Assembly (NCBI GenBank): GCA_002839435.1
Contig: PGYA01000012.1
Location: 1,914 to 65,913 of the forward strand
Direction of reading: 5' to 3'
Origin: Candidatus Riflebacteria bacterium HGW-Riflebacteria-2
GTDB lineage: Bacteria; Muiribacteriota; Ozemobacteria; Ozemobacterales; Ozemobacteraceae
Length of the DNA: 64,000 nt
Of this stretch, positions 6,737-21,867 are shown one piece after another; position 1 is the stretch's first letter, and every line of letters begins with the position of its first letter. The notes under the pieces are model-generated. The model worked only from the letters and a program-made list of their open reading frames with translations. It did no database searches and was not told the DNA's origin. The translations under genes were made by a program, and so were the position numbers.

Positions 6737-6770
6737 TAAAAAAAGAGCGGCTTGCGCCGCTCAATTTTTT
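6737..6770. terminator. Bidirectional intrinsic terminator downstream of the pilin gene
   Basis: An A-run, then the stem GAGCGGC-ttgc-GCCGCTC, then a T-run. Confidence 0.5.
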
Positions 6771-6791: not shown

Positions 6792-7145
6792 CTACTCAAG
6801 CGGAATCGGACTCTCAACACTACCGTGAATGCCGCATGAAACCATACCATCTCTGATCAATTCTGCACCAGTGATTACACAACCAGCTTCTGCAGGAACA
6901 ATAGTGCTCTTGAGGTATTTGCCTGCTGACAGTGCGCCTTCGTCGTAGTCATTCATCATGGCGTTGGTGTCCATGTTGTACATTTCGACAGCACCCATGA
7001 CGACTCTCTGGTTGGCGAAGCATGCTTTCTGACGAGCCTGTTGACGTGCTTTGCGGAAGTTAGGAATCGCAATAGCGGCCAGGATACCAATAATGGCGAT
7101 AACGATCATAAGTTCGATCAACGTGAAGCCCTTGCGAGATCTCAT
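6792..7145 (-). CDS. pilA: Type IVa pilin (major pilin-like)
   Basis: Prepilin leader MRSRKG|FTLIELMIVIAIIGILAAIAIP, with Glu at +5 and a C-terminal Cys pair. I set the start at the ATG with an AAAGGAG RBS; the tracker start at 7163 lies upstream of that RBS. Confidence 0.85.
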   Translation of the reverse strand: MRSRKGFTLIELMIVIAIIGILAAIAIPNFRKARQQARQKACFANQRVVMGAVEMYNMDTNAMMNDYDEGALSAGKYLKSTIVPAEAGCVITGAELIRDGMVSCGIHGSVESPIPLE

Positions 7146-7195
7146 AATAAGAACTCCTTTCAATAAAAAATAACTTTAGAACTTCGGTCACCTTA

Positions 7196-7224: not shown

Positions 7225-7353
7225 TCCAACTTTGCTATGCACAATTCCTTGCGAATATTTGCAGGATTGTCGGGAGTACGGTTGATCTGTGGCGATCTGG
7301 AGTCCTTGACTCTTTAATCGGCAGATAGTAACCTCTGATTGAGGAATTGTACA

Positions 7354-7923
7354 ATGAAAAACAAATTGAATCTTGGGTGTGGCGAATTCAAAAAAGACGG
7401 TTACGTCAATGTCGATTGCTTTTCAGTTTCAGAGCCAGATGTAACACATGATCTGAATTCATTTCCCTACCCATTCGAAGATAACAGCTTTCTGGTGGTA
7501 GAAGCCGATCATTTGCTGGAACATCTCGATGATCCGTTCATGGTTATGCGCGAGCTCTATAGAATCTCGGCTGATGGTTGTCAGATAAAGCTGCGGATGC
7601 CGCATTTCTCTCGTGGTTTTACCCATTCGCAGCATCGTCGCGGATTTGACGTGTCTTTTCCTCTCTATTTCGATCCGACTTTCCCGGGTGGATATCAGGG
7701 AGTGCCGCTTAAACTTGAAAATATGACCTTGCGCTGGTTTGCCCAGCCCTATCTTAAAAAGCGGGTTTTACCGCCACTTTTTTATTTTGGCGGCCGTACG
7801 CTGGGTCGCGTGATTGATTTTTTTGCTAATCTGTCCCCGTTCGTCTGTTCACGGCTCTGGTGCTTCTGGGTGGGTGGTTTCGAAGAAATCGAGATTGTTT
7901 TTCGCGTAGAAAAAAAATCCTGA
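7354..7923 (+). CDS. Class I SAM-dependent methyltransferase (Methyltransf_11-like)
   Basis: LNLGCG (motif I), DVTHDLNSFPYPFEDNSF and ADHLLEHLDDP motifs. ATG at 7354 with a GAGGAA RBS. Confidence 0.7.
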   Translation: MKNKLNLGCGEFKKDGYVNVDCFSVSEPDVTHDLNSFPYPFEDNSFLVVEADHLLEHLDDPFMVMRELYRISADGCQIKLRMPHFSRGFTHSQHRRGFDVSFPLYFDPTFPGGYQGVPLKLENMTLRWFAQPYLKKRVLPPLFYFGGRTLGRVIDFFANLSPFVCSRLWCFWVGGFEEIEIVFRVEKKS

Positions 7924-7928
7924 TCAAC

Positions 7929-9656
7929 TCATTGCTGCCGTATTTTTCTGAACAAAACAAGCCAGAATCCCGATGCCAGTATGAAAAACAGGTACCCCGT
8001 CATTCTGCCTTTCGGCCTGACTCGATAAAGGTTGAGAGTGCTGTTGCCTTTCGGCAGAGTGATCAGCATAGTTCCGTCATCATGCGGTGCAATCTGCAAA
8101 TTTTGCTGCTGCACCGCACCGGATGAGTCTGTGTCGGTTATTGCCAGGCGCCAGTAAAGGTCATAATGCGTTAGTATGTTAACCGGCATTGCCTGAGTAA
8201 TATTCTCAAACCGGTAATTTGCCCAGCTGTTTCCCGATTCTGCTGGCGAGAAAATTTGCCCGTCAGGTAGAACCCTGAATTGGTGAGGTTGCCCGGAGAA
8301 CTCGCTTAACCCTCTGTATTTGGGCAGAGCGTTTGACAGAAACAGCGGATAGTTGCCTCTTTTCAGATAAACATCGAGCAAACCTTCCGGCCAGGGCTTG
8401 CCGGGCAGCGTGAAGATGGCGATCAGCCAGAGCCATGGCAGAATCATGCTGATAAATATCACGGCTGGTTTCCTGGCAAACAGGGCGTTTAAGCAGCTGC
8501 TGGCACCGGCAAGTGTTACCATCGAAGCAAGAAAAATGACGCGCCAGGGAAACTGAACATAATGTAGTCCTGGCAGAAGATCCCAGAGAAATTTTGATGG
8601 GCTGAAAGCCATCAGCAGCAGTGACAGTCCGGAAAGCAGTAGAGTCTTTTCGTAGCTCGAGGTTTCGTTTTTGAGCAGTGCAAACATGCCAATTCCGAAG
8701 ACCACAATACACAAGAATAAGAGCCATGGCCTGAAGTGCTCAAACCTTGAGCCGGAGTCAAGAAGGTATATGTCCTGGTGATTGGCAGAATCGAAGCTGA
8801 GATAGTTGAATATGAGGCCGAACCCACGGTAAACCGGTCTCGTCATCTGGTTCTCTATGATCAGCGGATTGTCGAGAAATGGTGTGTGTTTTCCACCGGG
8901 CGCCAGATTTGGCATGCAGGCGTCATTGAAGACTGTCTCGCTCATTGTTCCTATTGCCGGCATGATATATGGAGCCGCGAAAAAGAAGGAAAAACCGGCG
9001 GCTGCGAAGATAAGCGCCAGCGGCCGAAATCGCTTTTGCTGAGTATAACGGCAACAGAACAGGCCAAAAATAATGCTGGCGTAGAAAGACAGCAAGGTTG
9101 TCTGTAGATGGGTGTAAGCCATGACTCCAATGGTCAGTGCCAGGATATGCCAGCCATACTTTTCCTGCCTGGCAATTTTCTGCCAGCCGAGAATCACCCA
9201 TGGGAACAGGAAATACGCACAGACGTTCTGAAATTGAAAGGCAAAATGCAAAAAGAGCACGATGAGAGGGTTCGTCAGCATCAGAAGAAGCGCCGGCTTG
9301 AAGCTAAGTCGGCTTTTGTCGGTAAGATACCAGGCTCCCGCAAAACCAAGTAAAAAGAAAAGCAAAACTGTCAGCTTCGCCGCAATATATACAGGTGCAC
9401 CCAGAAACATGAAGAGCATTGCCACGAAAACTGGCAATGGCCCAAGGTAGCGAAAAAGCGGAACGCCACGCCCTTCAAAAGGTACTGCAAACCAGTCAGG
9501 AAAGCCAGGGTCGTCAGCAAAAGCCTGGGTAAAGCCGACACAGGTGCGTAGATGCACGGCGCTTTCAAATGCGTAGGGAAATGGCTGTCGCCAGAAAAAT
9601 GGCAGGAATATCAGCAGAAGGCAGAGCGCCAGCATTGATAGAATGTATTTATTCAT
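7929..9656 (-). CDS. Polytopic membrane protein, putative GT-C-type glycosyltransferase (divergent paralog of the tandem pair)
   Basis: At least 10 predicted TM helices. Shares conserved blocks with the two genes at 9807-13420 (DPGFPDW..GRG loop; FQFQNVCAYFLFPW vs FLFQNLCAYFLSPW). Has an extracytoplasmic C-terminal domain followed by a final TM helix. Confidence 0.55.
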   Translation of the reverse strand: MNKYILSMLALCLLLIFLPFFWRQPFPYAFESAVHLRTCVGFTQAFADDPGFPDWFAVPFEGRGVPLFRYLGPLPVFVAMLFMFLGAPVYIAAKLTVLLFFLLGFAGAWYLTDKSRLSFKPALLLMLTNPLIVLFLHFAFQFQNVCAYFLFPWVILGWQKIARQEKYGWHILALTIGVMAYTHLQTTLLSFYASIIFGLFCCRYTQQKRFRPLALIFAAAGFSFFFAAPYIMPAIGTMSETVFNDACMPNLAPGGKHTPFLDNPLIIENQMTRPVYRGFGLIFNYLSFDSANHQDIYLLDSGSRFEHFRPWLLFLCIVVFGIGMFALLKNETSSYEKTLLLSGLSLLLMAFSPSKFLWDLLPGLHYVQFPWRVIFLASMVTLAGASSCLNALFARKPAVIFISMILPWLWLIAIFTLPGKPWPEGLLDVYLKRGNYPLFLSNALPKYRGLSEFSGQPHQFRVLPDGQIFSPAESGNSWANYRFENITQAMPVNILTHYDLYWRLAITDTDSSGAVQQQNLQIAPHDDGTMLITLPKGNSTLNLYRVRPKGRMTGYLFFILASGFWLVLFRKIRQQ

Positions 9657-9806
9657 GTGGATAAGCTTGAGCAGCGAGGGTTTGCCTTAAAAAGAAACAA
9701 ATTAGGAAGAAATTATAGCAGATAGCTATTATAATAGATAAAAATTTTCAGCGGAAGAATTAAGTTCGTTTTTATAACATGCAAGCAGAATAACAGGGAG
9801 AAAAAT

Positions 9807-11594
9807 TTGCCTGTAAATAACAGGGGTTTCTGGTTGGGTTTTGCCGTGTTGGCCCTCATTCTGGGTCTGGGTTACTGGCTCTGGTTATCTCCGGTTGTTG
9901 GGGCGGCAGATGTTCGCGTTCATGTCCGTTCAGCCTGGGTATATTATGATGGGCTGGTAGATGGGCTTGATTACCCTGACTGGGATGCCACCGCCTACGG
10001 TGGACGTGGCAACCCGGCGCCGCGATTTATTGGGGCAGCGCCGCTTCTTTTTGCTTCCTTTCTGCAGATCTTTGGAATTGCGGCACTGGCAGCGGTTAAA
10101 ATTGTGGTTGCAATGTTTGCTCTGCTTGGCCTGGCCGGTGTCTATTTCTGGCTTGTCTCTATTGGCTCCGCTACAGCGTTTCCGTGGGCGGCATTGTTTT
10201 TTATGGTTCATCCGCTGGTCAGTTTTCATCTGGGCGTGGCTTTTCTTTTTCAGAATCTATGTGCATATTTTTTATCGCCGTGGCTATGGTGCGCGGCCGT
10301 GGCGGTCTGGCGGGGAGATCGCCGGGCTTATATGTTTGGCGGTCTGGCAATGGGTTTTATTGCCTGGTCACATCTTTACTTTGCTTTTATGGTTGGCTGC
10401 GCCTGGGTTTTGCTCATGTTGGTCAGCTGGCTTAAAACCAGGCAGCGCCGCTTCTTAACGGCTACTTTTCTTGTGCCTGTTCTGGCTATGATGTTTTCCG
10501 CTCCATATCTGCTGCCGGCAATGTTGACCAGTGGCGATGTGTATTACGAAGAAGTTTCGAAAGTTCTGCGCCCGGGTCGGCCAGGCTGTGAATTTATAGA
10601 TGAGCCGGTTGTTAATGATAAAAATCAGGTTTTATCATGGTGGCAGGCCTTGCAGGAGTTGACAAGATCCCCTGAAGAAGGTTTGCCCGCCCACCTGAGA
10701 AATACAGGCCAAGTAACTTCAATTTTGCAGATGAAATCATCAGAAAACCGATTGAAGGCTTTGCGGCCCTGGCTATTACTCTGTCTTATGTTGTGTTTTA
10801 TTCTTGCCTGCGTCGGCAGCTTGCGGCGTGATATCGTTGATAAAGAAAGCCCCGTGCCCTTATGGATTTGGCTTTTTGTCGGTAGTTGCTGTGCCTTTAT
10901 GAGTCTGCGATTCGCTTTTGTGATTTACTCTGTGCTGCCTGGCGCGATGGCTGTTCAATTTCCTTTCCGCTGGCTGCTGCCGGCCTTCGGTCTCTGGATT
11001 CCTCTGATAGCCGCCGGTGTGATGCCAGCGAATGTGGCAATTACTTCGGGATTTCGCGGCCAATTCATGGCATGGTTTTCGAGATTCTTTCTGGTGATAT
11101 TTTTACTGCTGGGAGTGCTTTTGCAGAGTCTGTTCTGGGTTCTTCCAGATGATTCCATGAAAAGCTTTTTTGCGGCACCTGGTCACCTGGCTCCATTTTA
11201 CCCGCGTGCTGTTCCGAAAACACGCGATGTCCCCGCTGTGGCCGGAGTTCCTCATCTTATCGATATCGCCTCGGGAAGCGGTGTCATTACCGGTTATCAG
11301 GCCGGCGTTGCCTGGTTCGAGGCACGGGGTGAAGCGCAGACGCCAATAGAACTGCATATAAATACTCATTATGACCCGGGCTGGCGCTTTACCAATTTAC
11401 GCACAGGTTCTGTTAAACCTCGTGTCGATGAGAAAGATGGAACCATGTTGTTGCATATTCCGGCTGGCAGCTGGTTTCTGACGATGGAACGGGCCTCGCC
11501 CAGGGGCAGATCGATCGGCTGGTTACTGATGCTTGTTTCTCTTTTTATAATGGCATTTTCTGCCAGGCAAGGCAGTAGACATGAGGATTGTTGA
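9807..11594 (+). CDS. Polytopic membrane protein, putative GT-C-type glycosyltransferase (tandem paralog 1)
   Basis: TTG start with a GGGAGA RBS. Conserved loop DGLDYPDWDATAYGGRGNPAPRF, multiple TM helices, a C-terminal beta-rich domain (INTHYDPGWRF) and a terminal TM helix. Confidence 0.6.
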   Translation: MPVNNRGFWLGFAVLALILGLGYWLWLSPVVGAADVRVHVRSAWVYYDGLVDGLDYPDWDATAYGGRGNPAPRFIGAAPLLFASFLQIFGIAALAAVKIVVAMFALLGLAGVYFWLVSIGSATAFPWAALFFMVHPLVSFHLGVAFLFQNLCAYFLSPWLWCAAVAVWRGDRRAYMFGGLAMGFIAWSHLYFAFMVGCAWVLLMLVSWLKTRQRRFLTATFLVPVLAMMFSAPYLLPAMLTSGDVYYEEVSKVLRPGRPGCEFIDEPVVNDKNQVLSWWQALQELTRSPEEGLPAHLRNTGQVTSILQMKSSENRLKALRPWLLLCLMLCFILACVGSLRRDIVDKESPVPLWIWLFVGSCCAFMSLRFAFVIYSVLPGAMAVQFPFRWLLPAFGLWIPLIAAGVMPANVAITSGFRGQFMAWFSRFFLVIFLLLGVLLQSLFWVLPDDSMKSFFAAPGHLAPFYPRAVPKTRDVPAVAGVPHLIDIASGSGVITGYQAGVAWFEARGEAQTPIELHINTHYDPGWRFTNLRTGSVKPRVDEKDGTMLLHIPAGSWFLTMERASPRGRSIGWLLMLVSLFIMAFSARQGSRHEDC

Positions 11595-11602
11595 GAACAA
11601 CT

Positions 11603-13420
11603 ATGCCGGCAGGTAGCAAACGGATCTGGTTCGCTTTTGCCGTTATCTCGCTGCTTATGGGGCTGGGATACTGGTTGTGGCTCTCGCCTATTGCCGGAGC
11701 GTTGGACATTCACGTTCATATCCGCTCAGCCTGGGTTTTTTATATGGGCCTGGCGGATGGCCTGAGCTACCCTGACTGGGATGCCACTGCCTACGGTGGT
11801 CGTGGCAACTCAATGCCACGCTTCCTTGGGCCATTACCACTGGTTGTGGCGTCATTCTTTCAATTGATGGGAATTGAAGTAGTGCTGGCAGTTAAAATTC
11901 TGGTTGTACTCTTTGCTGTGCTGGGTTTGCTTGGTGTTTATTACTGGCTTGCCTCTATTGGTCTTGCCAGAACTTTTCCGTGGGCGGCACTGTTTTTTAT
12001 GGTCAACCCGCTGATCAGTTTTCATCTGGGCGTGGCGTTTTTTTTCCAGAATCTGTGTGCCTATTTTTTGTCGCCGTGGCTCTGGTATGCTGCCGTTATG
12101 GTGTGGCGAAAAGAGCGCCGGGCCATTACTGCCGGAGCTCTGGTTTTAGGTTTTATCGCTTTGTCGCACCTTTACTTTGCCTTGATGGTAGGATATGCCT
12201 GGTTCTTGTTGATGCTGATAAGCTGGCTGAAACTCAGAGAGCGGCGTTTCTGGATAGCGGCGTTAGCTGTCCCTGTACTTGCCATGCTTGTTGCGGCTCC
12301 CTATATTTTACCGGCAATGCTTACCAGCAGTGAAGTTTACTACGCAGAAGTCGCTCAAATTTTACGTCCGGGGCAGCGGGTGCTTGGGTGTGAATTCATT
12401 GACGATCCGGTTCTTGATGAAAAAAAGAACGCTTTGCCCTGGCATCAGGCATTGTTTGAGCTGACAAAATCACCAGATGACGTATCATCGCCGGATATGA
12501 ATAGCACAGATGAAATTATGTCGCTTCTGCAGGTTATTTCATCAGAGCATCAGCTGCATATTCTACGCCCCTGGCTTTTACTCAGTCTTGTTCTGTGTTT
12601 TATTCTCGCCTGTGCCGGCAGTTTGCGGCAGGATGCCGTTGTTGACAAAAGCCATATTCCGTTGTGGATGTGGCTTTTCGTCGGTGGGTGCTGTGCCATA
12701 ATGAGTCTTCGCTTTTCTTACGGCATTTATTCCATACTGCCGGGGGCAATGGCTGTTCAATTCCCTTTTCGCTGGCTGTTGCCGGCCTTTGGGCTTTGGC
12801 TTCCGCTGGCAGGTGTGGCGGCTGGTTTCTTAGATACTGCCAGCTTTCGTTTAAAGCTTATTGTCTGGGTGGCAAGAATTTTGTTCCTGGTGATACTGCT
12901 GCTGGGGCTCGGGTTTCAGGGCTTCTTCTGGGCTCTTCCTGATGCTTCTTTGAAAAGTTCTTTTGCCGCTCCCGGCTATCTCGAGCCATTTTGCCCCCGC
13001 TCCGTCCCCAAAATGCGTGGAGTTCCTTATGTGGCTGGTGTTCCACATCGTATTCATATTGCTTCCGGCAGCGGAGTCATAACAGACTACCAGTCAGGCG
13101 TCGCATGGCTGCAGGCACAAGGCGATGCGCATACACCAGTTGAGCTTCATATCAATACTCATTATGACCCCGGCTGGAGACTTACCATGTCTAGCACTGG
13201 CCCGATTCAGCCTATTGTCAACAAAAACGATGGTACCATGCTGTTAAAGATTCCGGCTGGTGCCTGGCAGCTGACGATGGAAAGGGCATCGCCGGCAGGT
13301 CGAACGATCGGCTGGCTGCTGATGCTTCTATCTCTTTTAATCATGTTTCTTTCTTCCAGGCCGAAGCAGCGCGATAGGACAGAACTTACGCTCATGAAAA
13401 ACCCGCCTGCGCCCTTATGA
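11603..13420 (+). CDS. Polytopic membrane protein, putative GT-C-type glycosyltransferase (tandem paralog 2)
   Basis: More than 55% identical by eye to 9807-11594 over its full length (DGLSYPDWDATAYGGRGNSMPRF; INTHYDPGWRL). ATG at 11603, 8 nt after the upstream stop. The tracker start at 11588 is a TTG overlapping the upstream gene. Confidence 0.6.
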   Translation: MPAGSKRIWFAFAVISLLMGLGYWLWLSPIAGALDIHVHIRSAWVFYMGLADGLSYPDWDATAYGGRGNSMPRFLGPLPLVVASFFQLMGIEVVLAVKILVVLFAVLGLLGVYYWLASIGLARTFPWAALFFMVNPLISFHLGVAFFFQNLCAYFLSPWLWYAAVMVWRKERRAITAGALVLGFIALSHLYFALMVGYAWFLLMLISWLKLRERRFWIAALAVPVLAMLVAAPYILPAMLTSSEVYYAEVAQILRPGQRVLGCEFIDDPVLDEKKNALPWHQALFELTKSPDDVSSPDMNSTDEIMSLLQVISSEHQLHILRPWLLLSLVLCFILACAGSLRQDAVVDKSHIPLWMWLFVGGCCAIMSLRFSYGIYSILPGAMAVQFPFRWLLPAFGLWLPLAGVAAGFLDTASFRLKLIVWVARILFLVILLLGLGFQGFFWALPDASLKSSFAAPGYLEPFCPRSVPKMRGVPYVAGVPHRIHIASGSGVITDYQSGVAWLQAQGDAHTPVELHINTHYDPGWRLTMSSTGPIQPIVNKNDGTMLLKIPAGAWQLTMERASPAGRTIGWLLMLLSLLIMFLSSRPKQRDRTELTLMKNPPAPL

Positions 13421-13539
13421 AGCGAATCTCATCCAAAACTGAATTGTTATATAGAGCCCGCCAACCTGTTTGACTCGCCTGGTTATCTGTGCTAGATTTT
13501 GTCTGAATCCTGATTCTGCATAAACGAATTGAAGGCATT

Positions 13540-14439
13540 ATGAATAGAAAGACTGAAATTGAAAAAAGAGGAATCTCGATCGTTATTCCGGCATATAACG
13601 AAGAGCATTCAATCGCTGGAACTGTCGAACATACTTACGCTGTTCTTTCTTCCTACCCAGGGTTGCCTTTTGAGATCATCGTGGTTGACGATGGTTCAAC
13701 CGATAACACTGCGGCTAACGCTCCCATAGAAAAATGTATTCTCTATCAGCACCCCAAAAACTACGGATATGGGCGCACTTTATTGCTTGGCGTCGGCAAG
13801 GCGCGCTATCCATTTGTCGGCATCATCGACGCAGATAACACCTATAATCCAGAGATTTTCCGGCAGATGATACCGTTGATGGATATTTACGACATGGTCA
13901 TCGGCGCCCGGCAGATCAAAGATCAGACCGTGGTTGTTAAGATTTTGCGAAGGCTGTTGAAGTTTCTGCTTTATTTCTTTTGCGAGCACGTATCTCTCGA
14001 CCCGAACAGTGGCATCAGAATTTTCAAGAGAGCTCTGGTAGAGCAGGGTGGTCACCTTTTCAGCAAAGGGTTCTCCTTTTCGACATCTTTAACCTTTTTT
14101 GCCGCACTCAATCATCGTTTTATCGAATACATTCCGATCGAATATGGAGAACGAACAGGTGTTTCCAAAGTGAAGCATCTTAGAGACTCTATCAGGACTT
14201 TTCTTCTGATAGTCAGCATGTCGTTGATTTACCGCCCGGTCAAGTGCTTTTCAAGTCTTCTTCTGGTTTTTGCGGCAGGTGTAAGCACGCTGGCATCTTT
14301 TAAAGGAAAAATGGAACGAGAGACGTTTCTGGGGTTCATATTCTCTCTTGGGATCGGGGTTCTTACCCTGGCAGTCGCATTTTTAGCATTCATTCAAGGA
14401 AAGATGTATGAACACACCTTATCAGGACCAAGGACCTGA
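13540..14439 (+). CDS. GT2-family glycosyltransferase, polyprenyl-phosphate sugar synthase (DPM1/ArnC-like) with C-terminal TM helices
   Basis: ISIVIPAYNEE...VVDDGSTDNT and a DAD motif. Two C-terminal TM helices. Confidence 0.85.
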   Translation: MNRKTEIEKRGISIVIPAYNEEHSIAGTVEHTYAVLSSYPGLPFEIIVVDDGSTDNTAANAPIEKCILYQHPKNYGYGRTLLLGVGKARYPFVGIIDADNTYNPEIFRQMIPLMDIYDMVIGARQIKDQTVVVKILRRLLKFLLYFFCEHVSLDPNSGIRIFKRALVEQGGHLFSKGFSFSTSLTFFAALNHRFIEYIPIEYGERTGVSKVKHLRDSIRTFLLIVSMSLIYRPVKCFSSLLLVFAAGVSTLASFKGKMERETFLGFIFSLGIGVLTLAVAFLAFIQGKMYEHTLSGPRT

Positions 14440-15952
14440 CAAACCACTTGTAATTCTGATTCAGCCGCAGATGGGACTCTCCGGCGATTTTTCCCGACAT
14501 CTTCCTCTGAGCCTGTTATACGTGGCCGCGCCTCTGACAAAGATGTCAGTAGATATCGAGATTCTCGATACAAGAGTGCTGGAGGGAAACTGGCGCGAGG
14601 CCCTGCAGAAACTTTTACGGCGTAAGCCGATCTGGGTAGGGTTTACGGTTATGGCCGGGTACCCGGTCGCCCATTCACTCGAGATATCGAGATTTATCAA
14701 AAAGCATTCAGACAGTAGAATCGTCTGGGGCGGGGCAATGCCGACTACCGATGCAGTCTCGTGCCTGAGCGAGAATTCGGTTGATTTTGCGGTTGCCGGC
14801 AGTGGGATAGACGCTACCAGGCTGCTCACAGAAGCTATTTTGCAGGGGCAGACCGACAATAAAGACCTTCTCGGCAAAATTCCCGGTCTGGCCTATAAAA
14901 TAGCCGGCGAGCATTTTTTTAACGGCAGATATCATGGTTTTGAGCACGTTACCTATCGCGATCTGCCATATCATCTGATCAGAGATTATTCAGTCTACGG
15001 CCAGATCGGTTCGAAAGACCGTGTTTTCCCTATTTATAGTGCTTATGGCTGCCCGTACCGCTGTGCTTTCTGTATTTCGCCGGCCTTGTATCGTGAATTT
15101 TCACCCAAGTGGGTTCCTGTGGCCATAGAAGAGGTTGTCGATCACATTGCTTTTCTGCAGAGCAAATATGGCGCGACCAACATTTATTTTTACGATGACG
15201 ACTCTTTCGTTAATATTGAACATGTCAGAGCCATCGCCAACTCATTGAAACGTCGAAACATGCATGTTAAGCTGAGTTTTCGCGGCGCCCGCGTCGATGA
15301 AATCAAGCGCATGGACGATGCTTTTCTCGATCTGCTCAGCGAAACTGGGACAGAAATGCTGCATATCGGCGTTGAGTCAGGTAGTCAGAGAGTTCTCGAT
15401 CTTTTCCAAAAGGGAATAACCGTCGCGGATATTATCGAGATCAATCGCAAGCTGGCCAGGCACAAGAAGTTGCTTGCTGCCTACAACTGGATCATCGGCA
15501 CTCCCACCGAAACCATCGCAGAGATCAGACAGACAACCAGGCTTTTGACATTGCTTATCAAAGAGAATCCGCGTTGCTTTATTTTTCAGCCTAATATTTT
15601 CAGGGTCGTTCCCGGATCGGTTCTTGGTGAGACAGCAAAATCCATGGGTTACCGGTCTCCGGCAAATCTTGATGAATGGATAACTGCTGAAATTGAACAG
15701 AATATTTCTTCGCCATGGCTTTCTGATGAAGTGAAGAAGCTTATTGAAATGCTTCAGGTAGTTGCCTATTTTGTTGACGAAAAGGCGGCGCTGCTTTTAC
15801 AGACAGGGTCGATAAAAGATCGTCTGATCAAGTTCGCGTCAAAACTATATCAACCTCTGGCCAGATTCCGTTTTAAAAGCGGCTTCTCAGGCCTGCTGAT
15901 CGAAGCCAGACTCTTTTTTCTTGCACAAAAGCTGCTCAAATGGTGGCGCTAA
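14408..15952 (+). CDS. B12-binding-domain radical SAM enzyme (class B rSAM)
   Basis: Cobalamin-binding-like N-terminal domain, then the CxxxCxxC radical-SAM cluster motif in YSAYGCPYRCAFC. Overlaps the GT2 stop. Confidence 0.8.
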   Translation: MNTPYQDQGPDKPLVILIQPQMGLSGDFSRHLPLSLLYVAAPLTKMSVDIEILDTRVLEGNWREALQKLLRRKPIWVGFTVMAGYPVAHSLEISRFIKKHSDSRIVWGGAMPTTDAVSCLSENSVDFAVAGSGIDATRLLTEAILQGQTDNKDLLGKIPGLAYKIAGEHFFNGRYHGFEHVTYRDLPYHLIRDYSVYGQIGSKDRVFPIYSAYGCPYRCAFCISPALYREFSPKWVPVAIEEVVDHIAFLQSKYGATNIYFYDDDSFVNIEHVRAIANSLKRRNMHVKLSFRGARVDEIKRMDDAFLDLLSETGTEMLHIGVESGSQRVLDLFQKGITVADIIEINRKLARHKKLLAAYNWIIGTPTETIAEIRQTTRLLTLLIKENPRCFIFQPNIFRVVPGSVLGETAKSMGYRSPANLDEWITAEIEQNISSPWLSDEVKKLIEMLQVVAYFVDEKAALLLQTGSIKDRLIKFASKLYQPLARFRFKSGFSGLLIEARLFFLAQKLLKWWR

Positions 15953-15955
15953 GAA

Positions 15956-17833
15956 ATGTGCGGAATATGCGGTTTTATCCGCTCCGAGCCGCGCCAGGGC
16001 AATGACCTGGTAATAAAAGCGATGGCCGCGACTATTTGGCATCGCGGCAACGAAGCCAGTGGTGTTTTTGTTGAACCAGAACTGGCGTTTGGGCATCAGC
16101 GCCTGTCAATTCTCGATCTCGATGCCAGATCGAATCAGCCGATGGTTTCTGGCAATAAGAGATTCGTAATTACCTTTAATGGTGAGATTTATAATTTCCG
16201 TGAGTTAAGGTCGCGACTGCACGGGAAGTCTTTACATACAACATCTGATACCGAAGTCTTGCTCGAACTCTGGGCGCAATACGGGCCTGCCTGTCTGGCT
16301 GATCTCAATGGCATGTTTGCTTTCGCGGTTTACGACAGAGCGCTTAAAGAGCTTTATTGTGTAAGAGACCGCCTTGGTATAAAGCCTCTCGTCTACTGGG
16401 GGAACGGCAGTAATTTTGCTTTTGCATCTGAAGCCAAGGCTTTGCTCAAATATCCAGACTGTAGCAACCAGATCGATTACGCCGCCCTCTCAGATTATCT
16501 GTCGCTTGGCTATATTACCGGTGAAGCAACTATATATGCCGGGATGCAGAAGCTTTCACCCGGGCATTATCTCAAGATTGCCAACGGAAAAGTCAGGAAA
16601 ATATGTTACTGGGATATTGCGCAGAAGCTTGGATCTGCCAGAGAAAACGCGGCTGGCGATGAAATTATGTCGTTGCTTGAATCGGCGGTTAAGTATCGTC
16701 TGATCAGCGATGTGCCGGTCGGCTCATTTTTGAGCGGTGGCATCGACTCGGCTGCGGTGACAACGCTTGCCGCACGGCACTGTTCTGATATTCAGACGTT
16801 CACCATCGGATTTAATGAAGCTTCTTTTGATGAATCTGCCAATGCCGCAGAATTATCAAAAAGTCTTGGTCTGCCCAATCATGTTGATTTTTTTAATGAG
16901 CCGGATCTGGCATTTTTACAGCATCTGGTAAAATACTTTGACCAGCCGTTTGCAGATACTTCAGCTCTGCCTTTCTTTCAGTTATGCAGTAATACCAGTC
17001 GCAATATCAAAACGGTCATGTGCGGCGACGGCGGCGATGAACTTTTTGCCGGCTATGAGACGCGCCGGGCCGATCTTTTTGCCCTGGCCGGCTATCGCAA
17101 TTTCCCATTCTGGAATGGTTTTTTGCAATTGGCTTCTCGGCTGGTCAACCTGATACCGGCAGACCGCGGCAAGGTATCGATGCATTATAAGGTGCGGCAG
17201 TTTTGCGAATTTGCGCATCTACCACCGCCGCAAAGCCATTTTTCATGGCGTTTGCTGTTTAATGAGGATGAGAAAAGAACTCTTCTGGGCGCGCAGATTA
17301 ACGAACAGCTGAAAAATCACCAAACCTGGAATAACTATGCCAGCCTTTTCGCAAAAGTTGAAAAGTTGCCGATGCTGCAGCAGCAGGCTATTGTCGATCT
17401 GCAGACCTGGCTTGCCGACGATATTCTGTACAAAGCTGACCAGGCTTCCATGGCTCATACTCTGGAAGTGAGGGCGCCATTCCTTGATTACCGACTGGTT
17501 GAGGCGGCTTTTGCAATTCCAGAAAAGCTTAAGTTCAATGCGCGTACTACCAAGACCTTATTGCGGCGGAAATTGTCTGCCATACTGCCGGCGCATGTTC
17601 TGAAAAGAAAGAAGGAAGGTTTTGGCAGTCCGGTATCGATATGGCTCGAGGGCCGGCTTGCAGAAAATTTTCTCGACAGCATGCATGATCGTCAGTTTAA
17701 AGAAGTTTTTCCTGATACAGCCGGCATTGTGAAGCTGTATGACGAGCATTGTGCCCGTAAAAGGGACAATGGCTACCGTTTATGGGCGTTATTCATGTTT
17801 GCGCTCTGGCAAAAGGAGTGGCAGCAATCTTGA
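15956..17833 (+). CDS. Asparagine synthetase (glutamine-hydrolysing) family amidotransferase
   Basis: N-terminal MCGICGF nucleophile and an SGGIDS PP-loop. 625 aa. Sits in a glycan cluster, so a sugar or glycan amidotransferase role (WbpS-like) is as likely as housekeeping AsnB. Confidence 0.85.
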   Translation: MCGICGFIRSEPRQGNDLVIKAMAATIWHRGNEASGVFVEPELAFGHQRLSILDLDARSNQPMVSGNKRFVITFNGEIYNFRELRSRLHGKSLHTTSDTEVLLELWAQYGPACLADLNGMFAFAVYDRALKELYCVRDRLGIKPLVYWGNGSNFAFASEAKALLKYPDCSNQIDYAALSDYLSLGYITGEATIYAGMQKLSPGHYLKIANGKVRKICYWDIAQKLGSARENAAGDEIMSLLESAVKYRLISDVPVGSFLSGGIDSAAVTTLAARHCSDIQTFTIGFNEASFDESANAAELSKSLGLPNHVDFFNEPDLAFLQHLVKYFDQPFADTSALPFFQLCSNTSRNIKTVMCGDGGDELFAGYETRRADLFALAGYRNFPFWNGFLQLASRLVNLIPADRGKVSMHYKVRQFCEFAHLPPPQSHFSWRLLFNEDEKRTLLGAQINEQLKNHQTWNNYASLFAKVEKLPMLQQQAIVDLQTWLADDILYKADQASMAHTLEVRAPFLDYRLVEAAFAIPEKLKFNARTTKTLLRRKLSAILPAHVLKRKKEGFGSPVSIWLEGRLAENFLDSMHDRQFKEVFPDTAGIVKLYDEHCARKRDNGYRLWALFMFALWQKEWQQS

Positions 17834-19674
17834 AAGAAAATTCACCCGGAATATTCGAAACACGAAATAGTTTGATTCTGGCACTGCTGGCATTGGTTAT
17901 ACTGACTTTTGCGCCAGTAATGTCAGCAGACTATCTTTTTTTTGACGAACATATCTATATTCTCCGAAATCCTGTCATAGCCGCGCCTTTGTCATTTGAT
18001 TCACTGGCCAGGATTTTCACGTCGTTTGAAAAAAATATATATACCCCTTTGAGCATTGCCAGTTTCTGGCTCGAATACAATATGACGGGCTTCAACAGCG
18101 CGGTATCGCATTTTATAAATCTTCTCTTGCATCTGGGCTGTGCGCTTATGGTGTTTCTGGTTGTTGAAGCGCTGTTAAAGAACAGAAAAATCGCTTTCGT
18201 AGCCGCTGCGATATGGGCGATACATCCCGCTCAGGTCGAGTCCGTCGCCTGGGTGCTTGAACGCAGAAATCTGCTGTATGGACTTTTTTATTTCGCCTCT
18301 ATGGCAGCCTATCTCAGATATCTGCAGCGCTTTCGCGCCGTCGATATGGCTGTCGCCACGGTTTGTATGATTTTATCGGGCTTGTCAAAGAATCTCGCAC
18401 TGTTTTTGCCGCTTGTCTGGCTGATGCTCGACTGGTCGCAAAGCCGGGCCATGACGCGTACTGTTATTGTAGAAAAATTGCCGGCTGTTGTGGTCGCCAT
18501 AGTTTATTTGTCTTTGATGCTTTTTGGCGTTCAGGATGGAATTTCCGGACAAGGTCAGCAAACCTTCAACTGGCTTATCGCTACCTATACTATCGGGTTC
18601 TATGTTATGAAAACAATTTTCCCGATCGGCATTGCTCCCATATACGAGATTAACGCCGGTTCTGAGCCCTGGTTTTTATTTGGTCCAGTTTTTCTGCTGA
18701 TCACACTGGGCGTGGCGTGGTCTTTATGTCGTAAGAATCGGCTGGTTACTTTTGCCTGGCTGTTTTATCTGTTAAATATTGTTCCTCTGTCGGGCATTGT
18801 GGTAGTAGGGTATCCCTTCTATGCTGCCCTGCACTTTATATATGTCGCGCTGTTCGGCATAATCCTAGGTCTGGCTGTGCTGTTTTACAATTTGCTGTCT
18901 TCCTGCGCGAAAGTTCATGTGTTTATGCCGGTCAGTATTGTTTTGACAGTTGCTTTGTCTGTTGTTTCATTCCAGTATTCGCATGTATATACAAACTCGC
19001 GTACCCTTTTTGAGTATGCTCTTGAAATAGACCCGGACAACCGGTTTGCCCGAGGTCAGCTGGCAACTTTTCTGGCAAGTCAAAATGATTATGCCGAAGC
19101 AGGAAAGCATTATCAGGAGTTGATCAAGCGCTATCCCGACTATTTCAGCGGATATTATGGCATGGGGCGTGTTTATAGAAGAGCAGGTCAGTATGATGTC
19201 GCGCTTACCTATTTCAGCCGAGCCCTTGAACTGAATTCCAGGAGAGCTGATCTGCCTTTCGACCGGGGCCTGCTTTTGCTGACCGCCGGAGATTTTGCCG
19301 CGGCAGAAAAGGATTTCTCTCTGTCTCTGCAGAATAAATACTCTAATATGTCTCTGGTCTATTTCTGGCGTTCTGACGCAAGAAGGCGGCAGGGAAACTA
19401 CCTCGGCGCCATAGAGGATTTGCTGCTGGCAGCTGCAGACAATAAAGATGATTTCAGTATTAAAGTTGGTCTTGTCGAGCTTTATGTCGAAAGCGGGCAG
19501 GTTGCTGAAGCTGTATCTGCCCTTATGGCGGTTTGCCGGCAGTTTGCCGCCGACCCATCGCAGCAGCAGGAATATATGCAGATCATCAGTTCCCCGAGTC
19601 TGGCCGCAGTGCTCACCAGATCAGCACTATACCGGAACTATTTCAGATACCACTTTAAGTGGTATCCGCTCTAA
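17782..19674 (+). CDS. GT-C-fold membrane glycosyltransferase-like protein with C-terminal TPR repeats (TMTC / PMT-like architecture)
   Basis: About 10 TM helices with an early FDEHIY..NP loop (DE motif), then at least 4 TPR repeats. The start is uncertain: the ATG at 17782 overlaps asnB by 52 nt, and an alternative TTG at 17830 overlaps by only 4 nt. Confidence 0.6.
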   Translation: MGVIHVCALAKGVAAILKENSPGIFETRNSLILALLALVILTFAPVMSADYLFFDEHIYILRNPVIAAPLSFDSLARIFTSFEKNIYTPLSIASFWLEYNMTGFNSAVSHFINLLLHLGCALMVFLVVEALLKNRKIAFVAAAIWAIHPAQVESVAWVLERRNLLYGLFYFASMAAYLRYLQRFRAVDMAVATVCMILSGLSKNLALFLPLVWLMLDWSQSRAMTRTVIVEKLPAVVVAIVYLSLMLFGVQDGISGQGQQTFNWLIATYTIGFYVMKTIFPIGIAPIYEINAGSEPWFLFGPVFLLITLGVAWSLCRKNRLVTFAWLFYLLNIVPLSGIVVVGYPFYAALHFIYVALFGIILGLAVLFYNLLSSCAKVHVFMPVSIVLTVALSVVSFQYSHVYTNSRTLFEYALEIDPDNRFARGQLATFLASQNDYAEAGKHYQELIKRYPDYFSGYYGMGRVYRRAGQYDVALTYFSRALELNSRRADLPFDRGLLLLTAGDFAAAEKDFSLSLQNKYSNMSLVYFWRSDARRRQGNYLGAIEDLLLAAADNKDDFSIKVGLVELYVESGQVAEAVSALMAVCRQFAADPSQQQEYMQIISSPSLAAVLTRSALYRNYFRYHFKWYPL

Positions 19675-20792
19675 TTATCAGAAGATTTTCTGGCGATCAG
19701 AGACCATAAAACTTTGTTGGTATGGCGCAGGTTGGCAATTGTCATAGCATTCTCTTCAGCCAGTCCGATGACTTCTTCGCGTCTGAAATGGTATGAAATG
19801 GGAGCGTGAAAGAGATCAAAAACCGACATCCAGGTGGTTATGAACCGGTTTTTTGACCAGAGGTTCATGTGCTCATAAAGGGGGATTTTTTGGGCGAGCT
19901 CAGGAGCTGCTTTGCCGGCAGGAACATAAAAAAGCATGATGATAAACTGCAGCACGAAAGCCGGGAAAAAAGACAGTGCGAACAGCATTTTAAGTGGGAT
20001 TTTGTGGAGTAGAAATTTGGCCGGTTCGACGATATGCGTCATGAGGAAATTTCCTTCCCAGCTGTAGACGCAGATGGCGGTCTGGCCGCCATTGCGGGTT
20101 ACTCTGGCAAGTTCTCTGAAACCCTGTTTGTGGTCATGCACATGCTGTAGTGCGTGATCGCAGATGGCAATATCAACGAGATTCGATTGCAGTGGCATTT
20201 GCACCAGATCAGAGCGTATAAGCAGGAGCTCGCTGTCGCTGCATGATTGCAGGAGCTTGCGGGCGGCATATATTTCACGGCCGAGATCGAGGGCAATGAT
20301 GGTCTTAGCACCCATTTTGCTGAGGTGATATACTTCGCGGCCGCGGCCTGCACCGCCTACAAGAACGATTGCGCCTTTAACGGTCTCAGGCTCAATGGGA
20401 ATAAAATTTCTGAATGCCGCGCGGCTCAGGAACCCGTTACTTTCGAGATCACTCACGGTAAACGGATGGATTTCATCCCATTGGTATTCCCAGTTTTTCA
20501 GAACTGCAATCTGCTTGAGCTCATTCGTGTTGAGCTCTTTGTTTTCGTAGGCAAAGTCTTTCGGCGCAAAACCGAGAGCGGCGAGAGTTTCGATCTCTTT
20601 CTGGTTGAGCGCATGTTTGCTGTTTCTGGAAAATAAAACAGCCGCCCCATCGAGTACCGGATAAAGGCGGTTGCATTTTTGACAGCTGATTACGCCATTC
20701 TCGATCTGCTCGTCGCTTATGTTGCCGGCTTTTATCGAGAGGTTGCTGCCACAGTCCAGGCATTTGAGCCAGGAGACATGCTTTATTTTCAT
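19671..20792 (-). CDS. SAM-dependent methyltransferase with N-terminal Zn-ribbon
   Basis: N-terminal CLDCG...CQKCNRLYPVLDG (Trm112-like ribbon). Motif I VLVGGAGRGREV...ALDLG. Starts 13 nt downstream of the pilT stop. Confidence 0.7.
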   Translation of the reverse strand: MKIKHVSWLKCLDCGSNLSIKAGNISDEQIENGVISCQKCNRLYPVLDGAAVLFSRNSKHALNQKEIETLAALGFAPKDFAYENKELNTNELKQIAVLKNWEYQWDEIHPFTVSDLESNGFLSRAAFRNFIPIEPETVKGAIVLVGGAGRGREVYHLSKMGAKTIIALDLGREIYAARKLLQSCSDSELLLIRSDLVQMPLQSNLVDIAICDHALQHVHDHKQGFRELARVTRNGGQTAICVYSWEGNFLMTHIVEPAKFLLHKIPLKMLFALSFFPAFVLQFIIMLFYVPAGKAAPELAQKIPLYEHMNLWSKNRFITTWMSVFDLFHAPISYHFRREEVIGLAEENAMTIANLRHTNKVLWSLIARKSSDN

Positions 20793-20805: not shown

Positions 20806-21867
20806 TCAGGCGCTTTTAAGCATTCTTTCGAGCTCTTTTGGATGCATGGTGTGAACCATAGCCTCTTCAAGCGTGATGTCGCCGCGCAGATACAGGTCTC
20901 TGAGAGACATCTCAAAGGTCATCATGCCTTCTTCGTGGCTGGTCTGCATGACAGTATAAAGACCTGAGATTTTCTGTTCGCGGATACAGTTGGCGACGGC
21001 CGGGTTGCCGATCAGAATTTCGTTACAGACGACGCGACCTTTGCCGCTGGCGATTGGCAGCAGCTGCTGGGCAACGACTGCGCGCAGAACGAACGAGAGC
21101 TGCGAGCGGATCTGCGACTGCTGGTGAGGCGGGAACATGTCGATGATACGGTTGATCGTCTGGGCGGCGTCAGTGGTATGCAGGGTGCCAAAGACAAGAT
21201 GGCCGGTTTCGGCCATGGTGCAGGCGGCGCCGACGGTTTCGAGGTCGCGCATTTCGCCTACCAGAATGACGTCGGGGTCTTCGCGCAGTACGCGGCGCAG
21301 CGCTTCGCCGAATGACTTGGTGTCAATGTGCAGTTCGCGCTGGTTGATGACTGAACGCTTGTGGTAGTGCAGGTATTCGATCGGGTCTTCGATCGTCATG
21401 ATGTGGCAGCGTCTGGATTCGTTGACGATATTGATCAGGCAGGCAAGCGAAGTTGATTTGCCTGAGCCGGTAGGGCCGGTAAACAGCACCAGTCCCTTGC
21501 GCATGCGCGTAAAATCGCGAAGTTTTTCCGGCAGGCGGAGCTCTTCAAGGCTCGGAATTTTGGTCGGAATAATTCGGAATGCAGCACCGATACAACCGCG
21601 CTGCTTATAAACGTTGACGCGGAATCGCCCGAAGCCATGCACCGAATATGACATGTCGAGTTCAAAATTTTCTTCAAACTCTTTCTGCTGTTCGGCAGTC
21701 AGCATGTTATATATCAGGGATCTTGTGTCCATCGGGGTCAGAACGTCGAGGTCAGTCTGGATAAGTTCGCCATCGACACGGATTACCGGTGGGGTACCCA
21801 CGGTAATGTGAAGGTCTGATGCCCCATTTTCAATGACCAGATTCAACAAATCGTTCAGGACAAACAT
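20806..21867 (-). CDS. pilT: Type IV pilus retraction ATPase PilT
   Basis: 353 aa, Walker A GPTGSGKST, Asp box, His box, and the PilT-specific AIRNLIRE-like region. AAGGAG RBS. Confidence 0.9.
   Translation of the reverse strand: MFVLNDLLNLVIENGASDLHITVGTPPVIRVDGELIQTDLDVLTPMDTRSLIYNMLTAEQQKEFEENFELDMSYSVHGFGRFRVNVYKQRGCIGAAFRIIPTKIPSLEELRLPEKLRDFTRMRKGLVLFTGPTGSGKSTSLACLINIVNESRRCHIMTIEDPIEYLHYHKRSVINQRELHIDTKSFGEALRRVLREDPDVILVGEMRDLETVGAACTMAETGHLVFGTLHTTDAAQTINRIIDMFPPHQQSQIRSQLSFVLRAVVAQQLLPIASGKGRVVCNEILIGNPAVANCIREQKISGLYTVMQTSHEEGMMTFEMSLRDLYLRGDITLEEAMVHTMHPKELERMLKSA

Follow-up and report, generated by a model that had tools for sequence, protein, structure and literature searches.

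A candidate GtrB/GT-C-type extracytoplasmic glycosylation system in Riflebacteria, with embedded tailoring enzymes and two uncharacterized GT-C families

Background

What do the genes clustered at positions 7339-20792 of this stretch of DNA make, and onto which acceptor is their product placed? The stretch, 64,000 nucleotides (nt) of contig PGYA01000012.1 and hereafter the window, belongs to the uncultivated metagenome-assembled genome Candidatus Riflebacteria bacterium HGW-Riflebacteria-2, and three of the proteins discussed below (paralog B, the TPR protein and the B12-binding radical S-adenosylmethionine (SAM) enzyme) are 100% identical to HGW-Riflebacteria-2 proteins. We consider the cluster a variant of the Gtr-type extracytoplasmic glycosylation systems that involves two uncharacterized families of GT-C membrane glycosyltransferases. 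With a probability of about one half, it encodes a three-component-like GtrB/GT-C-type system, which would use a tailored (uronamide-containing, methylated) monosaccharide on undecaprenyl phosphate (Und-P) and have a protein as its acceptor. An earlier note on this DNA had described a glycosylation cluster built around three paralogous membrane proteins. Its general glycosylation reading is sound, and we place the centre of the system instead in the genes for a GT2 glycosyltransferase, the radical SAM enzyme, an AsnB-type amidotransferase and a TMTC-like GT-C protein.

Gene content and layout of the cluster

Nine open reading frames (ORFs) were confirmed within the cluster; lengths are in amino acids (aa):

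7339-7923, forward strand: small SAM-methyltransferase-like protein, 194 aa; first ATG at 7354; weak match to Methyltransf_11 (E 2.5e-4)
7929-9656, reverse strand: GT-C paralog A, 575 aa, PF10131/PTPS_related-like and the paralog that diverges most from the other two
9807-11594, forward strand: GT-C paralog B, ORF of 595 aa (586 aa in the NCBI call)
11588-13420, forward strand: GT-C paralog C, ORF of 610 aa, overlapping paralog B by 7 nt
13540-14439, forward strand: GT2 polyprenyl-phosphate glycosyltransferase of the GtrB/ArnC/AglJ type, 299 aa
14408-15952, forward strand: B12-binding radical SAM enzyme, 514 aa, class-B methylase-like
15956-17833, forward strand: AsnB-type glutamine-dependent amidotransferase, 625 aa, eps_aminotran_1/WbpS type
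17782-19674, forward strand: TMTC-like GT-C, 630 aa, with an 11-transmembrane (TM) PMT_2-clan module and C-terminal TPR
19671-20792, reverse strand: methyltransferase, 373 aa, starting at 20792 and convergent with the TMTC-like gene

The GT2 and radical SAM genes overlap by 32 nt, and a spacer of 3 nt separates the latter from the AsnB gene. If it began at the annotated ATG at 17782, the TMTC-like gene would overlap the AsnB gene by 52 nt (17782-17833). We regard the TTG at 17830 as the likelier start, as it forms a TTGA start/stop overlap with the AsnB gene and gives a product of 614 aa, the length of the orthologs. Because of these overlapping or 3-nt-spaced frames, the four genes from GT2 to the TMTC-like protein are predicted to be translationally coupled. 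The cluster has a GC content of 0.47-0.51 in 2-kb bins, against up to 0.56 in much of the window, and several distant bins share its range.

The predicted donor synthase and tailoring enzymes

The GT2 protein matches PF00535 (E 1.7e-24). Its best matches among the NCBIfam models are AglJ (4e-20), ArnC (2e-14), PpgS and PgfS, with all equivalog scores far below cut-off. Its relatives among proteins of solved structure are ArnC (9hwj, E 1.5e-12 over residues 10-252), an archaeal dolichol-phosphate mannose synthase (5mlz, 1e-7) and GtrB (5ekp, 3e-7), and its C-terminus contains two hydrophobic segments, predicted TM helices, at 233-254 and 261-290. These features support a polyprenyl-phosphate sugar synthase type for this enzyme.

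The radical SAM enzyme combines PF02310 (E 7e-12) with PF04055 (1e-18) and displays the cluster motif CPYRCAFC, in which C215, C219 and C222 are invariant in 30 sequences. Its NCBIfam matches (BchE, ladderane enzymes, BzaD, P-methylases and HpnJ/HpnR) are spread at similar scores, and therefore its reaction cannot be named. In hopanoid synthesis the GT2 enzyme HpnI is followed by the B12-radical SAM enzyme HpnJ, a precedent for radical SAM remodelling of a lipid-bound sugar.

The amidotransferase contains an Asn_synthase domain (E 6e-85) and GATase_7, and aligns over residues 1-616 to positions 1-622 of the 628 in TIGR03108, eps_aminotran_1 (E 3e-150), at a score of 502 bits that lies below the equivalog cut-off of 817. 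Both the N-terminal MCGICGF, with the glutaminase cysteine Cys2, and the SGGIDS PP-loop are present. The eps_aminotran_1 family includes WbpS, WbqG and PGN_1234 of P. gingivalis, all of which form uronamides from uronic acids (PMC7468200). Hence, we classify the window protein as eps_aminotran_1/WbpS family-like rather than as a proven equivalog. The 373-aa methyltransferase matches Methyltransf_11 (E 2.6e-13), has a weak Trm112p match corresponding to an N-terminal zinc ribbon, and ends in a hydrophobic segment, a probable membrane anchor, at 265-296.

Pfam and NCBIfam thus reproduce all the domain calls of the earlier note: its DPM1-like GT2 is of the polyprenyl-phosphate glycosyltransferase type, with ArnC, the archaeal mannose synthase and GtrB as nearest solved relatives, and its B12-radical SAM enzyme, AsnB-type amidotransferase and two methyltransferases are all there with intact catalytic motifs.

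The TMTC-like protein

An AlphaFold2 (AF2) model of the TPR protein (pLDDT 93, pTM 0.90) shows 11 TM helices and, from residue 406 onward, TPR units, with Pfam TPR matches at 407-590; the odd number of helices would place the TPR domain on the extracytoplasmic, periplasmic side. The TM part has no Pfam match of its own, and neither PMT_2 nor DUF1736 is matched directly. A fold search with the model against the PDB returned only TPR proteins among the top 50, leaving the TM module unmatched, and a profile of the TM domain found no match among PDB sequences. The affinities of the module emerge through its homologs: residues 1-417 retrieved 65 of them, the distant ones carrying PMT_2 or the name protein O-mannosyl-transferase, and PMT_2 was matched by 4 of 17 aligned homologous TM domains (best 5.8e-8).

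Across 17-45 sequences of this family the invariant residues are D55 (followed by E56), P89 in YTPL, H148-P149, W157, K203 and P210. Eukaryotic TMTC proteins have been described by the motifs M1 (DD/DE in loop 1), M2 (..YRP..), M3 (RxD), M4 (KE..) and M7 (ERxxY) (PMC7801869). Judged by position and pattern, with no alignment to TMTC sequences, D55-E56, Y87-x-P89-L and K203 fit M1, M2 and M4. The Riflebacteria proteins have ERRN and ALHF at residues 160-163 and 348-353, positions that correspond to sugar- and phosphate-contacting TMTC motifs. Architecture, motifs and transitive homology together suggest a TMTC-like, PMT_2-clan protein, as the earlier note had proposed from the GT-C/TPR combination, and not a proven member of the TMTC family. 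Our literature searches found no characterized bacterial protein that joins GT-C and TPR in this TMTC-like way.

The PF10131-type paralogs

Paralogs B and C are 64% identical, paralog A is 26-31% identical to both, and the three share more than 130 invariant columns. They score 22.5-24.5 bits against PF10131 (PTPS_related), below the gathering cut-off of 26.4, at E 1e-5 to 5e-5 (paralog A: E 1.8e-5, 23.9 bits), and precomputed database annotation assigns PF10131 to the protein identical to paralog B and to five homologs. PF10131 is a member of the Pfam GT-C clan (CL0111), with its function listed as unknown (PMC7801869).

The fold of paralog B is consistent with this placement. Its AF2 model, made with 16 sequences (pLDDT 83, pTM 0.87), retrieved GT-C enzymes as at least 19 of its top 20 Foldseek PDB hits, the top 19 at probability 0.99-1.00. 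They comprise human and yeast STT3 (STT3A and the yeast oligosaccharyltransferase), archaeal AglB, PglB, AftD, ArnT, AftB and EmbC, with AftA and DPY19 lower in the list. The probabilities of the GT-C matches span 0.95-1.00, nearly all being 1.00, and TMq is 0.31-0.45. Transporters had been named in the earlier note as what the paralogs might prove to be, and we reject that identity; structures of the MFS and SLC type appeared in the same search only at probability below 0.1. The model further contains a beta-sandwich at 485-562, between the eleventh and the final TM helix, which resembles the C-terminal beta-sandwich domains of glycoside hydrolases and, going by the helix count, would be periplasmic. 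Two claims of the earlier note are thereby borne out, namely the GT-C-like fold, as modelled for paralog B, and the C-terminal domain of each paralog, which is this beta-sandwich followed by the last TM helix.

The first extracytoplasmic loop holds a YPDWD motif whose D52 and D58 do not vary among 16 sequences of the subfamily; in the same set D35 and D60 reach at least 90% conservation. In the broad PF10131-like family P57, W59, H189 and R388 are near-universal, position 52 is D or E in only 70 of 129 sequences, and position 58 is R rather than D. An exhaustive profile search with the subfamily reached 4823 cluster representatives (of 50%-identity clusters) at E<=1e-3 and 36 at E<=1e-30; the paralogs are therefore a narrow subfamily within a very large uncharacterized family. 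The paralog profile had no match among PDB sequences. Since hhalign detected no similarity between the PF10131-type family and the TM family of the TMTC-like proteins, the two GT-C families of the cluster are, by this comparison, not paralogs of each other.

Core and variable parts of the cluster

Synteny with five further contigs shows that the genes of the cluster do not stand together by chance. Seven loci besides that of the window retain its core, in company with differing numbers of GT-C copies: PF10131-type paralogs occur in 0, 1, 2, 3 or 4 copies and TMTC-like genes in 1-3. The related loci that distinguish core from periphery are the following:

L001 (HGW-Riflebacteria-1) and L091 (a JGI contig): arrangement as in the window, between pilA and pilT, with four PF10131-type paralogs
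L002, a more distant Riflebacteria-like contig: GT2, radical SAM, AsnB and TMTC-like genes with one PF10131-type paralog, plus two PMT_2 proteins
L003, a more distant Riflebacteria-like contig: the core with one PF10131-type paralog, plus MBOAT and one or more additional TMTC-like paralogs (the contig end holds a second match, which is partial)
L086, whose radical SAM enzyme is 58% identical: a minimal set of TMTC-like, small methyltransferase, GT2, radical SAM and AsnB genes, with no PF10131-type protein
L088/L089: in order, second TMTC-like, B-like paralog, GT2, radical SAM, AsnB, TMTC-like, 373-aa methyltransferase, A-like paralog and small methyltransferase
L092, a Riflebacteria-like contig: three tandem TMTC-like genes at 10001-15637
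L090, a Riflebacteria-like contig: a lone TMTC-like gene at 9019-10842, at the same chromosomal site (between a TPR gene and PNP_UDP_1/prfA), without GT2, radical SAM or AsnB

The order GT2, radical SAM, AsnB, TMTC-like is strictly conserved in all Riflebacteria loci. Orthologs of the small methyltransferase accompany the cluster in L001, L086 and L088 (62-87% identity), those of the 373-aa methyltransferase adjoin the TMTC-like gene in L001, L003 and L088 (58-81%), and those of paralog A are 53-64% identical in L001 and L088. From these comparisons the invariant core would consist of the small methyltransferase, GT2, radical SAM, AsnB and TMTC-like genes, usually with the 373-aa methyltransferase. 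The three paralogs, around which the earlier note took the cluster to be built, are its expandable, accessory part.

Orthologs of the radical SAM enzyme in other phyla are 40-58% identical. In Geomonas subterranea the radical SAM-AsnB pair (43% and 34% identity) lies in an island (L004, 9027-18246) that also holds genes of the NeuA/NeuB/NeuC, HisH/HisF and Maf-like types, a second B12-radical SAM gene, two methyltransferases, a GtrB-like GT2 (38% identity) and, next to it, a 533-aa membrane protein with a weak PMT match. Its content resembles that of nonulosonic-acid/Maf, flagellin-glycosylation loci. The pair recurs in a Nitrospirae contig. In L087 a radical SAM ortholog (50% identity) occurs with GtrA, a GT2, a sugar dehydratase and an aminotransferase, and a Patescibacteria contig contains TMTC-like and AsnB genes with a more distant radical SAM enzyme and a GT2. 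All of these out-of-phylum contexts point to sugar chemistry. A contig scan with degenerate patterns from the radical SAM alignment gave mostly generic B12-radical SAM genes at 23-30% identity, with only L006 and L007 close and L029 informative, and it recovered no Riflebacteria.

Candidate acceptors

The genes flanking the cluster include two sets that bear on the acceptor:

5881-6609, reverse strand: prepilin peptidase-like gene, 242 aa (A24_N_bact, 1e-32)
6792-7163, reverse strand: type IV pilin (N_methyl, E 7e-11), left of the cluster
20806-21867, right of the cluster: PilT
21995-23851, right of the cluster: PilB
25356-26339, reverse strand: PorV/PorQ-family outer-membrane protein (NF033709, 123 bits against a cut-off of 90), downstream of the giant genes
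26474-27169, reverse strand: second Gly/Thr-rich lipoprotein, 231 aa
27269-37279, reverse strand: giant immunoglobulin (Ig)-like secreted protein, 3336 aa, a candidate acceptor outside the enzyme cluster
37367-38119, reverse strand: lipoprotein, 250 aa
38123-50185, reverse strand: giant Ig-like secreted protein, 4020 aa, a candidate acceptor outside the enzyme cluster

Both giant proteins have signal peptides, Big_13, Big_5, Big_3_2 and FlgD_ig domains, and 19-20% Ser+Thr. Their last ~140 aa resemble the C-terminus of PorU or a type IX secretion system (T9SS) sorting domain (E 5e-18 and 9e-16), with matches to TIGR04183 and PF18962 below cut-off. They are collinear paralogs, and in a self-comparison for repeats with conserved Ser/Thr their internal repeats were too diverged for BLAST. 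In the window the giant genes are 6.5 kb to the right of the cluster. In L088/L089 the cluster stands directly between orthologs of the 3336-aa protein (61-81%) and those of the 250-aa lipoprotein and the 4020-aa protein (72% and 54%). Because they are linked to the cluster in two different arrangements, the giants are better-supported candidate acceptors than the pilin, by guilt of association. The earlier note had named both: the linkage of the giants recurs in a different arrangement, and the pilin adjacency is confined to close relatives.

Several features of these flanks are recorded in their own right. Each giant gene is followed by a gene for one of the paralogous 231-250 aa lipoproteins, which have a lipobox Cys followed by a poly-Gly/Thr linker and belong to no family of Pfam or NCBIfam; L088 retains the pairing (72%). 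The PorV/PorQ-family protein and the two giants with their C-terminal-domain-like ends make up a T9SS-like cargo locus (25356-50185, reverse strand) in Riflebacteria; the T9SS is usually described as restricted to Bacteroidota/FCB. The prepilin peptidase-like gene at 5881-6609 matches only A24_N_bact at E<=0.001, with no match to the catalytic Peptidase_A24 domain reported. The pilin gene is closely followed downstream, at 6745-6762, by a GC-rich hairpin (7 bp, perfect) that has T-runs on either strand and resembles a bidirectional terminator. Farther away, at 57121-60624 on the reverse strand, is a second PilB/GspE-type ATPase (T2SSE and MshEN), unusually long at 1167 aa, with ~600 extra C-terminal residues that match no family.

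A proposed pathway and the points against it

Gene content, folds, motifs and synteny would fit together in the following pathway, whose chemical steps, sugar and acceptor are all predicted. Going by its family, the GT2 enzyme would act at the cytoplasmic face, where it would charge undecaprenyl phosphate with a sugar taken from a nucleotide donor. On the same side, the WbpS-type AsnB would convert the carboxylate of a uronic acid to a carboxamide, and methylation or other remodelling of the sugar may fall to the B12-radical SAM enzyme together with both SAM methyltransferases, one of which is probably membrane-anchored. This tailoring could come either before or after lipid loading. A flippase would then expose the lipid-linked sugar to the periplasm. 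There the TMTC-like enzyme would initiate glycosylation by placing the sugar on Ser/Thr in a secreted protein that its TPR domain picks. We propose it as the protein glycosyltransferase because an 11-TM GT-C module with a periplasmic TPR domain is an architecture for protein substrates. The PF10131-type GT-Cs, with their periplasmic beta-sandwich resembling a carbohydrate module, would extend or branch the glycan from the same donor. Such use of one lipid-linked donor by several GT-Cs would follow the logic of mycobacterial arabinan/mannan synthesis, or of TfpW on pilin. The likeliest acceptors would be the neighbouring giant Ig-like surface proteins of the T9SS type, with the pilin as a weaker candidate.

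A number of observations weigh against this pathway. The nearest solved relative of the radical SAM enzyme is the glutamine C-methyltransferase QCMT (9CCB, E 1.4e-11), a protein methylase, so a sugar substrate is not established. No GtrA-type flippase (PF04138) was found in the window, either as a domain match or by tblastn with the GtrA of L087, and the flippase may be encoded elsewhere in the genome; likewise, no nucleotide-sugar dehydrogenase that would form a uronic acid was found in the window or nearby. No match to a solved GT-C structure was obtained for the TPR protein's TM module. At two motifs the Riflebacteria TMTC-like proteins have ERRN (RRN) and ALHF (LHF), against ERKD (RxD) and ADRY (DRY) in distant bacterial homologs, and therefore their activity could differ. 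In the PF10131-type paralogs the Riflebacteria subfamily has D58, N150 and T241, against the usual R58, E150 and E241 of the broad family. Finally, the linkage to giant proteins is seen in only 2 of about 4 arrangement types.

A more far-reaching version of the pathway is one that we put forward as speculation and think rather improbable. Under it, the bacterial TMTC-like enzymes would be domain-specific protein O-glycosyltransferases for the Ig-like and cadherin-like repeats of giant adhesins, and a counterpart or possible ancestor of animal TMTC1-4/TMEM260. They would use an undescribed, radical SAM-methylated uronamide on Und-P, which rapidly duplicating PF10131-type GT-Cs would polymerize, and the cargo would leave by a T9SS-like route.

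Alternative explanations

The strongest competitor to a protein acceptor, itself on the unlikely side, keeps the donor chemistry and directs it to another component of the envelope, such as the lipopolysaccharide core or O-antigen, an exopolysaccharide or the glycolipid that anchors T9SS cargo; the enzymes would then act in the manner of ArnC/ArnT or Gtr, with the TPR domain as a scaffold. The best family of the AsnB, eps_aminotran_1, and the best NCBIfam match of the TPR protein, PrsT, both come from PEP-CTERM exopolysaccharide loci. P. gingivalis anchors its T9SS cargo through a linking sugar, a WbpS-made uronamide (PMC7468200), and T9SS-type cargo and a PorV-family gene adjoin in the window. 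However, the known T9SS anchor glycan is made on undecaprenyl diphosphate by cytoplasmic glycosyltransferases and not by GT-C enzymes. The MBOAT acyltransferase in L003, of a kind typical of polysaccharide O-acylation, and the carbohydrate-module-like beta-sandwich of the paralogs would also suit such an acceptor, and glycans are the target of most characterized three-component systems (PMC11127046). Two further features argue for a protein instead: the combination of GT-C with TPR is a hallmark of the protein-directed TMTC and TMEM260, and the cluster contains no Wzx, Wzy, WaaL, ABC-export or other polysaccharide assembly genes.

It is improbable that the cluster is a pilin glycosylation island, comparable to TfpW beside pilA in group IV Pseudomonas aeruginosa, with the pilin 176 bp to its left as the target. 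Its position would suggest this: the window, HGW-Riflebacteria-1 and the JGI contig all have it exactly flanked by pilD-pilA and pilT-pilB, and in the window the 373-aa methyltransferase gene is 13 nt downstream of pilT on the same strand. Moreover, TfpW is a GT-C that uses a lipid-linked monosaccharide both to glycosylate the pilin and to polymerize on it (bioRxiv 10.1101/2020.04.19.049825). Yet these three pilin-adjacent loci belong to close relatives with 64-91% protein identity and therefore represent one evolutionary event, whereas L002, L003, L086, L088/L089 and L092 have no pil genes in the 9-10 kb of flank (less for L086); the pilin, in addition, is short (about 117 aa) and not rich in Ser/Thr.

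That the cluster holds no single pathway, with the radical SAM, AsnB and methyltransferase enzymes modifying a lipid, a peptide or the polyprenyl carrier and the GT-Cs using an ordinary Und-P-hexose, would accommodate the kinship of the radical SAM enzyme with QCMT, the similar scores of lipid enzymes (ladderane, HpnJ, HpnR) and the lasso-peptide cyclases among the AsnB homologs, but is made improbable by the tight, order-conserved frames from GT2 to the TMTC-like gene in Riflebacteria, by the constant presence of the radical SAM-AsnB pair among sugar-pathway genes in other phyla, and by the lack of precursor-peptide or lipid-synthesis genes in the cluster.

Significance

The PF10131-type and TMTC-like families here share one operon with a predicted donor synthase and tailoring enzymes, which makes for a compact system, and in one genome the cluster sits between the genes for plausible giant Ig-like substrates. 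Should the acceptor be an envelope glycan, the cluster would count among the ordinary Gtr-type modification loci, if one with elaborate decoration. It becomes considerably more interesting if the TMTC-like enzyme glycosylates the Ig-like domains of giant adhesins. A protein acceptor would bear on how TPR-bearing GT-Cs choose folded Ig-like domains, a question still open for human TMTC/TMEM260 (PMC11292533), and would join a B12-radical SAM step to lipid-linked sugar chemistry.

Comparison with known systems

The three-component Gtr-type systems (GtrA, GtrB and a GT-C, including ArnC/ArnT and the pentofuranose systems; PMC11127046) resemble the window in having a GtrB/ArnC-like GT2 beside a GT-C with acidic extracytoplasmic loops, and the implied donor is in both cases a lipid-linked monosaccharide. 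The window differs in that it has no GtrA-family flippase and has four GT-C genes of two unrelated families per GT2. A B12-radical SAM enzyme, an AsnB and two methyltransferases are embedded in its operon, and its acceptor is probably a protein. Among the amidotransferases of known function, WbpS, WbqG and PGN_1234 are comparable to the window AsnB through its full-length TIGR03108 match and its intact Cys2 and PP-loop, and are set apart by its score (502 bits against the 817 of the cut-off) and by the absence of Wbp pathway or dehydrogenase genes nearby.

The closest experimentally established protein systems are the streptococcal GtrB/PgtC2 and PgfS/PgfM1/PgfM2. In these a GT2 makes an Und-P-sugar, from which one or two GT-Cs glycosylate Ser/Thr of extracytoplasmic proteins, and the adhesin substrates (Cnm, CnaB, CbpA) are encoded in or beside the cluster (PMC12041528). 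The window GT2 matches the PgfS model. The streptococcal GT-Cs, however, are of the YfhO family and lack TPR, whereas those of the window are PMT_2/TMTC-like with TPR and PF10131-like; the window host is a diderm, and its cluster has the extra radical SAM, AsnB and methyltransferase tailoring.

With TfpW and the mycobacterial Emb/Aft enzymes the proposed system would share the use of one lipid-linked monosaccharide for initiation and polymerization by several or multifunctional GT-Cs. AftD, AftB, EmbC and AftA are among the structural matches of paralog B, and Emb/Aft enzymes likewise possess periplasmic carbohydrate-binding beta-sandwich modules. They differ in that the paralog profile detected no sequence similarity to them, in that genes for decaprenylphosphoryl-arabinose synthesis are lacking, and in that the pilin adjacency is not conserved.

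In contrast to the eukaryotic TMTC1-4/TMEM260 proteins, the window protein has no direct PMT_2 or DUF1736 match, its RxD and Arg-containing motifs are altered (RRN and LHF), and its donor is probably not mannose. What it shares with them is the N-terminal 11-TM GT-C-like module followed by TPR, predicted to lie on the non-cytoplasmic side, together with, by position and pattern, the loop-1 acidic pair, a YxPL-type motif and the conserved Lys. TMTC1-4 O-mannosylate the beta-strands of the extracellular cadherin (EC) domains and TMEM260 does so on IPT domains, both of which are Ig-like folds (PMC11292533). The targets are thus Ig-like domains of giant adhesion proteins, and the candidate acceptors in the window are giant Ig-like repeat proteins as well.

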